From positions 164,585-228,584 of the forward strand of contig CASFBF010000010.1 in the NCBI GenBank assembly GCA_949292985.1: a stretch of DNA of 64,000 bases. Reading direction: 5' to 3'. This document shows positions 37,766 through 57,062 of the stretch, in pieces. The translations under genes were made by a program, and so were the position numbers. The DNA comes from an uncultured Bacillota bacterium. Its GTDB lineage: Bacteria; Bacillota; Clostridia; Christensenellales; UBA1242. The notes beneath the pieces are model-generated. The model was given only the letters and a program-made list of their open reading frames with translations. It was not told where the DNA came from and did no database searches. The first letter of the stretch is position 1. Each line of letters starts with the position of its first letter.

Positions 37766-39544
37766 ATGGACAATCGAAAAAAATTAGGAATTTTTAAATA
37801 TTTAAATGCTCATAAATTTGCTATTTCATCATATGTCGTATTTTCAATTTTAAGTTCTGCCTGTAATGTTCTTACAACAATTTTTTTAGCAAATGCTATA
37901 GAATTCATTACTTGCTCAGAATATAAAAGCGCTATTTTTACGATATTGATTGTCGGCGGTATATATTTAATACAACATATTTGTATGATATTCGTGGATT
38001 ACATTTATTATAAATATTCAAATATTATAGTAGCAGAATTAAACCGTGATTTAACTAAGCAGGCATTTAAGTTCACCTCAAAAACATATTCTGAATATGA
38101 TACTGGAACTTTTGTGCAAAGAATTCTAAATGATCCTTCTTTAGTAGTTAATAACCTTACTAATATAGTTGATCAAATTGCAAGTATTTTAACAACATTA
38201 ACAATTTTAATTTACATAATAGTCTTAAATATTTATATTGGAATAATTTTGGTTACACTTATTTCTATATGCGGATTGATAGAGTTTTTTAGAACCAAAA
38301 TACTAAAGAAAAACAAATTTTTGTCATATAAAAAATCGGACAAAATAAACTCATTAATGACTGAAATAATAAGAAGCGAAAAAGACATAAAATCTTTAGG
38401 TCTTGAATTAACATTAGGCAAAACTTCTGAATTTTATTATAACGATAGAATGAAACAAGCAATAAAAACTAATACCACCGATCTTTGGTGGCAATCAGCA
38501 CGTAACATTCTTATAAAACTTATAAGTGTTGGTGTTCTTATTTTGGGCATTTACTTTGTTGACATAGGCACCATCACATTAGCAACTTTTATGATTATAT
38601 ACTCTAACAATTATTCCGTATTTTCATTTGTTTGGTGTGTTGGACATGTTTGGAGCATATTAATAGAAATCAAAGTTTCTTCCAAACGAATGTTCTCGCT
38701 ATTTGACGAAAATCTATTTCCTTGTGAGCATTTTGGGACTACTCACATTGACAGAATGCAGGGTAAAATAGAATTCCAAAATGTAAGTTTTGCTTTTTTA
38801 GAATATGAAACTGTTGAAAGCAATGCTAAAACCTATCAGCTTCAGCGCAAAATAGTTTCAAAAACAAAAGTTTTAGACACAATCTCCTTCACAATAGAAC
38901 CTAATACAAGTGTGGCCTTTGTAGGCCAATCAGGGTCTGGAAAGTCTACTATTTTGAATTTAATATCCAAGATGTATGAAGTAGATAGTGGACAAATTTT
39001 AATAGACGGAATTGACATAAAAAATTTAGATAAAAAGACTCTTAGAGATTCAATTTCTCTTGTTAACCAATTCCCATATATATTTGACATGACAATTAAA
39101 GAAAATTTATTGCTCGCAAAAAATAACGCTACTGATGAAGAACTTTGGCAAACAATTGATAAAGCTTCACTTAATGAATTTGTACTTTCTTTGAAAAATA
39201 AATTGGATACAAAAGTAGGAGAAGGTGGTATCAAACTTTCAGGAGGGCAAAAACAAAGGCTTGCCATTGCGAGGGCTTTGCTTAGAAACTCACCAATCAT
39301 AATCTTCGACGAAAGCACCTCTTCGCTTGATAACTTTGCTCAAAGCGACATCAAACGCAGCATAGATGAGTTAAAAGGCAAAAGCACAATCATAATTGTT
39401 GCACACAGGCTTTCAACGATACGCGATGTTGATAAAATATTTTTCCTTGACAATGGAAAAATTGAGGATGTTGGAACATTTGATGAGTTGTTTGAAAATA
39501 ATGTTAAATTCAAAAATATGTTCTATGCTGAAAACTTAAATTAA
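37766..39544 (+). CDS. ABC exporter, fused TMD-NBD (multidrug/peptide type)
   Basis: N-terminal TM domain; GQSGSGKST, LSGGQKQR, IIFDESTSSLD, VAHRLST. Confidence 0.92.
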   Translation: MDNRKKLGIFKYLNAHKFAISSYVVFSILSSACNVLTTIFLANAIEFITCSEYKSAIFTILIVGGIYLIQHICMIFVDYIYYKYSNIIVAELNRDLTKQAFKFTSKTYSEYDTGTFVQRILNDPSLVVNNLTNIVDQIASILTTLTILIYIIVLNIYIGIILVTLISICGLIEFFRTKILKKNKFLSYKKSDKINSLMTEIIRSEKDIKSLGLELTLGKTSEFYYNDRMKQAIKTNTTDLWWQSARNILIKLISVGVLILGIYFVDIGTITLATFMIIYSNNYSVFSFVWCVGHVWSILIEIKVSSKRMFSLFDENLFPCEHFGTTHIDRMQGKIEFQNVSFAFLEYETVESNAKTYQLQRKIVSKTKVLDTISFTIEPNTSVAFVGQSGSGKSTILNLISKMYEVDSGQILIDGIDIKNLDKKTLRDSISLVNQFPYIFDMTIKENLLLAKNNATDEELWQTIDKASLNEFVLSLKNKLDTKVGEGGIKLSGGQKQRLAIARALLRNSPIIIFDESTSSLDNFAQSDIKRSIDELKGKSTIIIVAHRLSTIRDVDKIFFLDNGKIEDVGTFDELFENNVKFKNMFYAENLN

Positions 39545-39545
39545 A

Positions 39546-39575
39546 TAAAAACACGCTAAAATAGCGTGTTTTTTA
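39546..39575 (+). terminator. Intrinsic terminator
   Basis: TAAAAACACGCTA-AAA-TAGCGTGTTTTT. Confidence 0.8.
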
Positions 39576-39614
39576 TTAAATTCTAGATAATTTTTATTAT
39601 TTTTTAAAAAAATG

Positions 39615-39643
39615 TTGACAATATTTGGAAAGTGGCATATACT
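39615..39643 (+). promoter_or_regulatory. SigA promoter of tRNA-fMet
   Basis: TTGACA-N17-TATACT, 10 nt before the tRNA. Confidence 0.85.
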
Positions 39644-39653
39644 ATAACCACAT

Positions 39654-39730
39654 CGCGGGATAGAGCAGTCCGGAAGCTCGTCGGGCTCATAACCCGAAGG
39701 TCGCAGGTTCAAATCCTGCTCCCGCAACCA
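39654..39730 (+). tRNA. tRNA-Met(CAT), initiator (fMet)
   Basis: 77-nt cloverleaf CGCGGGA...TCCCGCAACCA; C1:A72 mismatch, GGG/CCC anticodon stem, CAT anticodon, encoded CCA. Confidence 0.97.
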
Positions 39731-40117
39731 AAATAAAGACGAAGAGACATCTCTTCGTTTTTTTATTATTCATTTGAACCTGCGAACCTCTAAGCGAACA
39801 AAGTGAGCGTGTGGTTCATTTAAGGTTCAAATCCTGCTCCCGCAACCAAAGTGAAAGCGAAGGCACAAGCCTTCGTTTTTTATTTTAATTTGGACCTGCG
39901 AACCTCTAAGCGAACAAAGCGAGCGTGCGGTTCATCTAAGGTTCAAATCCTGCTCCCGCAACCAAAGTGAAAGCGAAGGCACAAGCCTTCGTTTTTTATT
40001 TTAATTTGAACCTGTGGACCTCTAAGTGAACAAAGTGAGCGTGCGGTTCATTTAAGGTTCAAATCCTGCTCCCGCAACCAATGAAAAAAAGCGAAGCGGA
40101 AATACTTCGCTTTTTTT
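39705..40117 (+). repeat. tRNA-linked tandem array: 4 copies of the 26-nt tRNA 3' end separated by terminator + hairpin units
   Basis: AGGTTCAAATCCTGCTCCCGCAACCA at 39705, 39823, 39939 and 40055 (periods 118, 116, 116); each copy is followed by a terminator-like hairpin with a T-run. Confidence 0.95.
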
Positions 40118-40164
40118 ATAATTTAATTTTATATATTTTAACAGCAACAATAACTAAAATTTAT

Positions 40165-40995
40165 TTAATCAATCTTTTTATTTTCTTTCTTTACCCACAA
40201 ATTTACTATAAAATCTAATGTGATGTTTTTTAAATTTAACATAACCAAATTTTGTTCGTTTTTTGCGCCGTTATACCAATAAGGCGTCATCATCAAAAGG
40301 CTGTTCAAATCTTTAATATCTTTTAATTGGATTTTATATGTTAAACGATTGCTTTTCAGTAAATTAAATTCCGAAAAAGCATATTTTTCTGTATTAGGCT
40401 TTGCTTCTTGGTTGTAAATAATTTCTTTTATTTCTTTTAAATGATTTTTACCTGGAACTACTTCTACTATTATTCCATTGTCTTTAAGTATTCTTTTAAA
40501 CTCTTGTTGTGGCTTTGGTGCAAAAATATTGAATATGATATCAACCGACTGTTCTTTAATTGGCATATTGAAAATTGAAGCAACAAAATATGATGACTTT
40601 TCATCGTTTTTTGACGCTTTCTTTATAGCAAATTTTGAAATGTCTATCCCCGCTTTTATGCAATCATTCGCTTCAATGTTTGACAAATAATATCCAGTTC
40701 CGCAACCTGCATCTAACATAATCTTACCAGAAAAATCAACTGTTGAACCAATTTGATTTTTTAATTTTTCAAAATAACCTGATTTTAAAAATTCATCTCT
40801 TGCGTTTATCATTACAGAATCATCACCAGGATTTTTTGTTTTTTTCTGATTTGGCAACAACAAATTAACATATCCTTCTTTGGCAAAATCAAAAAAATGT
40901 CCTGACTGGCATGACAAACCTTTATCTTTTACAAGAAGTTCACTGCCACAATTAGGACATTTTAATATGTTTAAAGCGTTTATTATTTTATTCAT
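40165..40995 (-). CDS. 23S rRNA m1G745/748 methyltransferase (RlmA-like)
   Basis: N-terminal Zn finger CPNC..CQSGHFFDFAKEGYVNLL, LDAGCGTGYY, MMTPYW. Confidence 0.88.
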   Translation of the reverse strand: MNKIINALNILKCPNCGSELLVKDKGLSCQSGHFFDFAKEGYVNLLLPNQKKTKNPGDDSVMINARDEFLKSGYFEKLKNQIGSTVDFSGKIMLDAGCGTGYYLSNIEANDCIKAGIDISKFAIKKASKNDEKSSYFVASIFNMPIKEQSVDIIFNIFAPKPQQEFKRILKDNGIIVEVVPGKNHLKEIKEIIYNQEAKPNTEKYAFSEFNLLKSNRLTYKIQLKDIKDLNSLLMMTPYWYNGAKNEQNLVMLNLKNITLDFIVNLWVKKENKKID

Positions 40996-56815: not shown

Positions 56816-56892
56816 TGGTGCGCCGCAAGGGATTCGAACCCCTGACCTTTGGTTCCGTAGACCAACGCTCTATCCAGCTGAGCTAGCGGCGC
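56816..56892 (-). tRNA. tRNA-Arg(ACG)
   Basis: GCGCCGCTAGCTCAGCTGGATAGAGCGTTGGTCT-ACG-GAACCAAAGGTCAGGGGTTCGAATCCCTTGCGGCGCACCA. Confidence 0.97.
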
Positions 56893-57062
56893 ATAAATTA
56901 TTAGAAAGAATGAATTTAAAATTAAGTTTTCATTGTTCGAAGAAAGGAGAGAGCGTAAACGCTCATTAGAACGAGTTTGAGTGACGCTGCTTGCAAGCGT
57001 AGATCAAGCGAGTTCGCATCAAAAATTTTAATTTTTGATATCCAGCTGAGCTAGCGGCGCAT
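56871..57062 (-). repeat. 24-bp direct repeat of the tRNA-Arg 5' end flanking a 144-bp palindromic insert
   Basis: TATCCAGCTGAGCTAGCGGCGCAT at 56871..56894 and 57039..57062. Confidence 0.92.

Follow-up and report, generated by a model that had tools for sequence, protein, structure and literature searches.

Transfer RNA (tRNA) genes are classic landing sites of mobile DNA, and partial tRNA copies beside them are normally read as integrase scars. Gene-less derivatives of integrative elements are known under the concept of the CIME. The RtT repeats of Escherichia coli have been known since about 1980, and Bosl and Kersten reportedly described rtT RNA in 1991 as a processed tyrT product. Rfam lists RtT (RF00391, gene rttR) as an RNA family. 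Both PMC3318445 and the 2024 preprint 10.1101/2024.07.17.603846 cite rtT RNA as arising from the tyrT transcript by processing. The preprint calls the role of RtT unknown and notes that in stressed E. coli the tyrT array region has elevated coverage in DNA that resists exonuclease; partial tRNA genes left by integration are well described in PMC9897764. Here we examine an array behind the initiator tRNA gene (tRNA-fMet) of an uncultured Bacillota bacterium, located in a stretch of 64,000 nucleotides (contig CASFBF010000010.1, positions 164,585 to 228,584) that is called the window below. By analogy of build, the array appears to be one of the poorly understood repeats linked to tRNA genes of which E. 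coli RtT is the type example, and not to be part of an integron-like system. Our preferred account, held with about as much doubt as confidence, is that it consists of three tandem copies of a gene-less, non-autonomous, recombinationally mobile RtT-type DNA cassette, amplified by unequal crossover.

The tRNA-Met(CAT) gene at 39654-39730 (+) was called both by ARAGORN and by Rfam (RF00005, 65.3 bits), and its C1/A72 end is, in our own reading, of the initiator type. Behind it stand three tandem units of 116-118 bp, each combining a terminator with a 61-nt hairpin and with 26 nt that repeat the 3' end of the tRNA exactly; over 39705-40081 Tandem Repeats Finder reported a period of 116, 3.2 copies and 91% matches. 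The tRNA positions 52-77, from the T-stem/T-loop to ACCA, recur exactly three times as 26-nt copies that overlap the right arms of the hairpins. Unit 1 has the left arm ATTTGAACCTGCGA, in which tRNA positions 48-61 stand in exact reverse complement, and this inverted copy reaches four bases beyond what the duplicated tRNA fragment contains. Hairpin and tail together measure 77 nt, equal to the length of the tRNA. The features of the locus are as follows.

39615-39643 (+): sigma-70-type promoter of tRNA-fMet, TTGACA-17-TATACT, 11/12 matches
39654-39730 (+): tRNA-fMet (anticodon CAT), source of the unit arms and tails (ARAGORN; RF00005, 65.3 bits)
39735-39762 (+): terminator T0 behind the tRNA, a 12-pair stem followed by a T run
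39772-39832 (+): hairpin of unit 1; left arm 39772-39785 is inverted tRNA 48-61, conserved loop core CTCTAAGCGAACAAAGTGAGCGTGT
39823-39848 (+): direct copy of tRNA 52-77 in unit 1, exact 26-nt match
39853-39880 (+): terminator T1, from terminator prediction
39888-39948 (+): hairpin of unit 2, from fold and arm identity
39939-39964 (+): direct copy of tRNA 52-77 in unit 2, exact 26-nt match
39969-39996 (+): terminator T2, from terminator prediction and sequence, identical to T1
40004-40064 (+): hairpin of unit 3, from fold and arm identity
40055-40080 (+): direct copy of tRNA 52-77 in unit 3, exact 26-nt match
40093-40113 (+): terminator T3, from terminator prediction, end of the array, facing the convergent gene for an RlmA-like methyltransferase

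An earlier prediction made from the letters of the window (the original prediction) had described these three units and hairpins, the exact tRNA 3'-end copies and the left arm complementary to the tRNA, and had seen no integrase in the window. The sequence and Tandem Repeats Finder agree with it on all these points, and the two PF00589 matches of the genome sit on other contigs.

Terminator-like sites on the + strand number four, one after the tRNA and one after each unit, and both strands of the region together hold 8 against 1.1 expected from shuffles. The 61-nt hairpin folds with -19.7 kcal/mol (z = -4.1), a value equalled by 0/200 shuffles, and the 77-nt units gave z-scores of -2.6, -1.3 and -3.1. 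The sole + strand promoter-like site in 39300-40400 is that of tRNA-fMet, the units having no promoter of their own. No open reading frame (ORF) of at least 80 aa was found in 39731-40117, and in the Rfam search over the region only the tRNA reached its cut-off. Within its own genome the fMet unit is confined to this one locus. Units 2 and 3 (39849-40080) are identical in their 39-nt terminator parts and in their 26-nt tRNA copies, and their 61-nt hairpins differ at six positions, all of them transitions, so that change is concentrated in the hairpin. Pieces of the array are present in contigs from three other studies, which excludes an artefact of a single assembly. The runs that contain the stretch are animal-gut metagenomes, many of them from chicken; RNA runs share at most 5% of sampled words with the stretch, probably from the tRNA itself.

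The mention of E. coli tyrT repeats had been an aside in the original prediction and proved to be the best lead, since RtT likewise combines forward and inverted tRNA pieces. RF00391 matches 18 sites in E. coli K-12, of which 13 exceed the cut-off; every one lies at a tRNA locus (tyrTV, proK, the lysT operon, valU-lysV, serX and arg/ser tRNA loci). All 13 copies examined end in the last 18-19 nt of the neighbouring tRNA (Tyr, Pro, Lys, Ser). An inverted T-arm piece is present in 9/13, among them the Pro copy, three Ser copies and two of the six Lys copies, and is missing from four copies in lysT-operon spacers; the inverted Lys copy comprises positions 49-61, the same segment as in the window. 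The 178-bp tyrV units and the tyrT-tyrV spacer are made of inverted tRNA-Tyr 68-77, direct 59-67, a GC-rich module in the T-loop and direct 67-85, and the spacer copy additionally inverts tRNA-Tyr 56-65. The closing helix of the Rfam RtT consensus is an inverted tRNA piece paired with the direct copy.

The window units resemble RtT in several respects. Both are arranged in tandem (3.14 copies for RtT, 3 in the window) on the strand of the tRNA genes that they follow or separate, both end in the 3' end of the neighbouring tRNA including CCA, both have a closing helix of inverted and direct tRNA pieces around small GC-rich hairpins, and in both the sequence follows the local tRNA (checked for Tyr, Pro, Lys and Ser). 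They differ in the place of the module and in termination. The E. coli module interrupts the T-loop of the partial copy, and its units are co-transcribed and have no terminators, whereas in the window units the T-loop is intact, with the core between it and the inverted arm, and each unit has its own terminator. Sequence overlap is limited to short words, e.g. CGAGCGAAGCGAG. RF00391 gave no match in 39300-40400 at E up to 10, where nothing reached the gathering cut-off of 45 bits, and none in 11 related Clostridial loci at E up to 1, while E. coli control loci scored 133-137 bits. In the reverse direction, a covariance model of the window-type hairpins (R1, described below) gave no significant RtT match in the E. 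coli loci, the best RtT-related E being 0.32, and nhmmer with the module of a second unit type (type B, below) likewise gave no significant E. coli RtT match. We regard the window units as RtT-like in build, not as demonstrable members of RF00391.

To describe the units in the genus, 154 reference species were scanned with a pattern for the fMet 3' end and the matches were counted by hand. At least one match was found in 142/154 species and at least two in 42/154, the latter being an undercount that misses units with decayed tails (e.g. in G015, G116 and G105). The copies are mostly spaced 98-217 bp apart, and unit number in the relatives ranges from 0 to 3, the variability that had been predicted. 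Copies 10-14 kb apart were found in G028, G088, G089, G127 and G101. The elements of G028 and G101 are bounded by 45-bp tRNA-fMet repeats that start in the anticodon loop; the ends of the large elements bear arm repeats TTGACACCA or TTGACTCTCAA, and an integrase gene lies at the attR end in G101.

At least four types of short unit stand behind fMet in the genus. Type A is the T-loop hairpin of the window. Type B is made of an inverted copy of positions 22-41, the module GCCGAGC-hairpin-GCGAACGCCACGRAG and then positions 36-77, and types C/E and D are about 100 bp long. Their order varies, with B, B and an A remnant in G011, B then D in G150, and D then B in G146; in G101 a 10.8-kb integrase element is followed by two short units, and a large element is likewise followed by short units in G088 and G093. 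The presence of different unit types in different orders behind the same tRNA agrees with the cassette-like behaviour proposed originally and shows that units assort as independent cassette types behind one tRNA. Some partial fMet copies carry a T-arm allele unlike that of the resident tRNA (AGTGG/CCACT versus ACAGG/CCTGT; L078/G146 and L120/G074). The partial fMet copy at L119 (G066) has a hybrid T-arm with stem halves from different alleles, as if a crossover had occurred within the T-loop. Type-A arrays often finish in a truncated left half-hairpin that is broken within the conserved loop (L126 11264-11698; L011/G023; L108/G107).

Beyond the genus sample, a scan of genome contigs with a pattern for the right arm of the hairpin returned 22 matches, 19 of them by chance and mostly inside protein-coding genes; the only true matches came from three metagenome-assembled genomes of the same lineage, all of them short units. 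The same pattern had 0 matches in viral contigs, and the metagenome scan returned one contig.

Nine type-A hairpins were used to build model R1, which was searched over 151 genus genomes and matched in 14 of them. At fMet loci it found three units in G015 and one each in G007, G023, G107, G006, G011, G116 and G105, and it also recovered this core away from fMet, in two units of G165 and in G112 following tRNA-Gly(GCC) and in G096 following tRNA-Arg(ACG); five weaker matches (C22 of G015, G074, G031 and two in G105) lie outside the inspected set. The loop at the Gly and Arg loci is ACC-TTCTACGAGCGAAGCGAGT-GGT, and the outer arms there have TTTGAAC/GGTTCAAA replaced by TTCGAAC/GGTTCGAA, as in the local T-loop. 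In the Gly units the tails (...TGCTGTAACCA) resemble a shortened fMet tail and not the Gly 3' end. Copies at other tRNAs with co-varying arms, as anticipated by the original prediction, do occur at tRNA-Gly(GCC) and tRNA-Arg(ACG), and they show that the cassette core is common to different tRNA loci and species while the outer arms and tail take the local tRNA sequence. Arms fitted to the local tRNA together with fMet-like Gly tails suggest transfer between loci.

The conservation of the fold was examined in alignments of increasing width. In the nine closest hairpins 88% of cells are paired and 0/17 pairs are doubly changed, and 500/500 shuffles do as well. In a set of 18 hairpins, with the alignment fitted to the model, 86% of cells are paired and 5/16 pairs are doubly changed; the covariation score was reached by 0/500 shuffles and the pair count by 20/500. 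For type B, with the structure taken from the same alignment, 10/34 pairs are doubly changed, five of them in one fully variable helix that is almost wholly Watson-Crick, and 0/500 shuffles were as good. Apparent compensatory changes between the hairpins of the window genome (G000) and G006 were rejected, being a paired one-base deletion plus one-sided changes, with 0/17 double changes in the nine closest. The original prediction had taken G-T pairs on the top strand as a sign of selection on a single-strand fold. Two stem substitutions among the units of the window do give G-T pairs, but across the 18 hairpins G-T and A-C mismatches are balanced (16 vs 11 cells, 4 vs 4 columns), so that the argument does not generalise; the type-B set leans slightly to G-T (6 vs 2). 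The mini-hairpin word GCGNAGC was considered as a hallmark and rejected as too weak, with 8 occurrences in tRNA flanks against 4.0 expected.

The type-B module was also seen away from fMet. A conserved intergenic element of about 150 bp in L071 (G132), L081 (G152) and L076 (G140) ends in TTGCCGAGCC-GTAA-GGCGAACGCCACG, followed by short repeats of the AATCAAAA type. Its sites follow tRNA-Thr(GGT) and tRNA-Lys(TTT), with one site that has no tRNA nearby, and it has the type-B module without a partial tRNA copy. The module GCGAACGCCACGAAGC was considered as an integrase arm site and rejected, the ORFs beside it in L071 and L076 not being recombinases. Behind tRNA-Thr(CGT) in L072 (G035) the type-B module is inverted and lies between inverted and direct anticodon-arm pieces of tRNA-Thr, and the module can therefore sit in either orientation.

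The same build recurs at other tRNAs of the window genome, which comprises 897 kb in 11 contigs with 34% G+C and 40 tRNA genes, is 98.96% complete and has the window on contig C10. At least 11/40 tRNA genes are flanked by partial self-copies beside inverted tRNA pieces, and in 7/40 the last 20 nt of the tRNA recur nearby downstream. In the five short 3' units (fMet, Gly-CCC, Ile-GAT, Thr-TGT and Glu-TTC) the intervening DNA invariably holds a 10-15-nt exact inverted copy of the tRNA (5/5), and what is inverted is the piece of tRNA located where the direct copy begins or immediately 5' of that point. A mirror image, with a 5' partial copy, is found upstream of five tRNAs, namely Met on C4, Asn, Leu-TAA, Ile-GAT and Arg-ACG (window 57039-57060); the inverted piece is at least 9 nt long in the units of Met on C4, Leu-TAA and Ile-GAT and near-exact by eye in that of Asn. 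Val-TAC and Glu-CTC are two further affected tRNAs. Three ordinary-looking cases, Thr(GGT), Arg(TCG) and Trp, stand apart.

In the window itself, tRNA-Arg(ACG) at 56816-56892 (-) is preceded by a promoter and then an exact copy of its own first 22 nt (57039-57060 (-)); about 146 nt of unrelated sequence separate this copy from the real tRNA, a 5' mirror of the fMet arrangement. Further sites of such units are C9 38252-38485, 41341-41648, 60391-60650 and 12170-12581, C10 126410-126613 and 10200-10575, C3 3550-3990, C4 3960-4367, and C8 25040-25446. Some of the partial tRNA copies of this genome are interrupted by hairpins in the T-loop, anticodon loop or D-loop. A second hairpin module, CCCYGAAAAT-loop-ATTTTYRGGG, recurs inside partial copies of four different tRNAs, at Glu-TTC (C10:126485-126613), Glu-CTC (C10, downstream of 10501), upstream of Leu-TAA (C9:~12400) and in the 3' unit of Ile-GAT (C9:~41400); it is distinct from the fMet core, and R1 gives no match to it.

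Of the three ordinary-looking cases, tRNA-Thr(GGT) (L140, C10:43523-46602) has a 45-bp repeat that bounds 3 kb with a serine hydrolase, a beta-lactamase-fold protein and a 156-aa ORF, and tRNA-Arg(TCG) (L139, C10:150186-151407) has a 34-bp repeat that bounds one 292-aa ORF with no Pfam family; both islets are without an integrase and without an inverted tRNA piece. At tRNA-Trp (L037, C1:84863-87244), an arm-type phage integrase of 387 aa and a CI/LexA-like repressor adjoin the tRNA at the contig end, and C11 bears, at 257484, a 17-nt repeat of the end of tRNA-Trp together with TTTAGGAAC arm repeats that match. The two contigs, C1 and C11, are probably joined at tRNA-Trp by a prophage-like element.

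In the preferred account of a mobile RtT-type cassette, each cassette would combine a terminator with an inverted T-arm copy of the host tRNA, a GC-rich hairpin core that is conserved, and a direct copy of the tRNA that starts at the T-loop and runs to ACCA. It would enter, or be exchanged, by recombination within conserved tRNA loop sequences, and the agent could be a tRNA-targeting integrase acting in trans, host recombination or template switching. The triple copy would then have arisen by unequal crossover between repeats of the 26-nt copy plus terminator, and the identity of units 2 and 3 in their terminator and tRNA-copy parts is what a recent crossover would be expected to leave. Any unit RNA would come from read-through of the tRNA terminator and fold into a hairpin with a tRNA-like 3' tail, by analogy with E. 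coli RtT RNA. Exchange finds support in the foreign (G146, G074) or hybrid (G066) T-arm alleles of some partial copies.

Several points weigh against this account. No movement was observed, and the array is spanned by none of the contigs from four runs, which are silent on copy number and circles; a joint of 39621 to 40110 in run X1 was disregarded, having only 21 letters on one side. No recombinase able to serve about a dozen different tRNA sites was found in the 98.96% complete genome. Its two PF00589 matches, on C11 and C1, are one Xer-like protein and the arm-type integrase beside tRNA-Trp; it has three large serine recombinases, and no Y1 transposase (PF01797, 0 matches), IS110 transposase or reverse transcriptase was found. 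The link with RtT is architectural only, the model searches in both directions having returned no significant match. Covariation rests on the wider, model-fitted set of hairpins, since the nine closest show 0/17 double changes. The conserved loop sequence and the constant orientation would also fit a functional RNA, and the account does not explain the role of the inverted tRNA copy.

A functional RNA of the RtT kind, in which a read-through transcript is processed to a hairpin with an ACCA-ending tRNA-like tail, is rather unlikely in our judgement; it may act in tRNA processing, as a decoy for tRNA-binding enzymes or in stress signalling. It would account for units that always lie on the tRNA strand and end in ACCA and a terminator, for loop sequences kept across species and across the fMet, Gly and Arg loci, and for pairing that is kept with some covariation, and it has a precedent in the E. 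coli rtT RNA and its Rfam family cited above. However, covariation is no proof of RNA because self-correcting DNA palindromes also keep their arms complementary. A strong terminator precedes every unit of the window and a promoter-like site is present in none. Presence, number and type of the units turn over fast, 112/154 species being without a second copy. The inverted arm fits the real tRNA better than it fits its own pairing partner (14 vs 10 nt here; 16 nt perfect in G101), and the top strand has no excess of wobble pairs.

It is unlikely that the units are passive scars, that is, attL-attR remnants of tyrosine-integrase islands in the T-loop of tRNA-fMet that have lost their interior. 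The 26-nt direct repeat of the tRNA 3' part does begin at the T-loop sublocation, and type-B repeats begin in the anticodon loop, both being usual sublocations in a scheme said to be that of Williams (2002). Genuine elements of 10-14 kb with 45-bp tRNA-fMet repeats exist in G028, G101 and G040 and, judged by spacing, in G088, G089 and G127, with the integrase at the attR end of the G101 element, and the window genome has gene-carrying islands with tRNA repeats of 34-45 bp (Arg(TCG), Thr(GGT)) and an integrase beside tRNA-Trp. Like att scars and CIME-like elements, the units directly repeat the tRNA 3' part from the anticodon loop or T-loop onwards and stand in tandem arrays after a single tRNA, and real integrase elements use the same tRNA in relatives. 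In contrast to them, units of the window type are 98-217 bp long and gene-less, have no linked integrase and contain an inverted copy and a conserved core. The ends of the real elements in G028, G040 and G101, with their TTGACACCA or TTGACTCTCAA arm repeats, are without a hairpin or an inverted tRNA piece. Neither a linked cognate integrase nor a full-length relative with the hairpin in its attP arm was found (G028, G040, G101 and viral contigs). One hairpin core is conserved at three different tRNAs, modules also occur in D-loops and in simple, non-duplicating insertions elsewhere in the genome, and the RtT units of E. coli K-12 sit in tRNA operon spacers. The inverted tRNA piece and the conserved hairpin core are beyond what integrase chemistry explains.

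A wider form of the cassette idea, which we consider quite unlikely, is that RtT-type units form a single class of hairpin cassettes, very widely distributed and self-propagating, which home in on tRNA genes via nucleic-acid complementarity. The inverted and direct tRNA pieces may then be retargetable homology or guide arms around a conserved core. Such homing may need host functions only, which would explain an occurrence that spans E. coli and tiny gut Clostridia.

Debris of replication or repair is a still less probable source; here template switching or fold-back priming at tRNA stems would make the units, and self-correction of palindromes would keep the arms complementary without a function. 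The inverted pieces copy the real tRNA exactly, palindromes cap the partial copies on the side that faces the real tRNA, upstream and downstream alike, several arrays end in truncated left half-hairpins, the variable helix of type B is almost wholly Watson-Crick, and the six differences between units 2 and 3 are all transitions within the hairpin, as such debris would have it. Against this, a conserved non-tRNA core with its loop sequence recurs at different tRNAs and in different species, some copies carry foreign tRNA alleles, and the terminator is intact in each unit.

Scarcely credible is the integron-like system of the original prediction, with the hairpins as attC-like single-strand sites of empty cassettes at a tRNA and a dedicated tyrosine recombinase: the units are cassette-like arrays of variable number, and their imperfect palindromes of about 60 nt are attC-sized with AAC...GTT ends, but the predicted recombinase is neither in the window nor linked to units elsewhere, the predicted cargo is missing from every hairpin-type unit examined, the arms are laid out differently, and the wobble pairs have no strand bias. 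No IntI-type tyrosine recombinase with attI is adjacent, the PF00589 matches being on C11 and C1 and the window on C10, and the 116-bp units, like the short units of relatives, contain no gene. The consensus cores of attC are RYYYAAC...GTTRRRY, with the two boxes of one arm mutually inverted. Here the ends ATTTGAAC/GTTCAAAT are one inserted base off RYYYAAC/GTTRRRY, and within each arm the second GAACC/GGTTC box repeats the first directly and not in inverted form, as with the GAACC boxes of the left arm. Identity with the target spans 26-45 nt rather than about 7, sequence and not only structure is conserved, and viral contigs gave no match to the right-arm pattern. REP, BIME and REPIN repeats and elements derived from IS200/IS605 are also short, extragenic, non-autonomous hairpin repeats behind genes or terminators with variable copy number; unlike them, the window units are tied to tRNA genes and their arms copy the adjacent tRNA and are not a fixed repeat, and the genome has 0 matches to PF01797, the Y1 (HUH) transposase/RAYT family.

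General accounts of tRNA fragments left by integration were found in the literature, and no description was found of units like RtT beyond the enterobacteria or of a build with forward and inverted tRNA pieces, although supplementary files may hold more. If the class is real, the orphan RtT family gains a comparative context, annotators have reason to beware of pseudo-tRNA calls, and the formation, movement and copy-number change of cassettes can be studied in E. coli as a tractable model.

The array sits between convergent genes, an ABC transporter gene at 37766-39544 (+) and the gene for the RlmA-like methyltransferase at 40165-40995 (-), which is followed by MetRS. Elsewhere in the genome, the three large serine recombinase genes (frames of 524-544 aa) lie within 15 kb at C8:55320-69896 (-), by tRNA-Ser(GCT) at C8:54154-54244, and probably belong to an integrated element.

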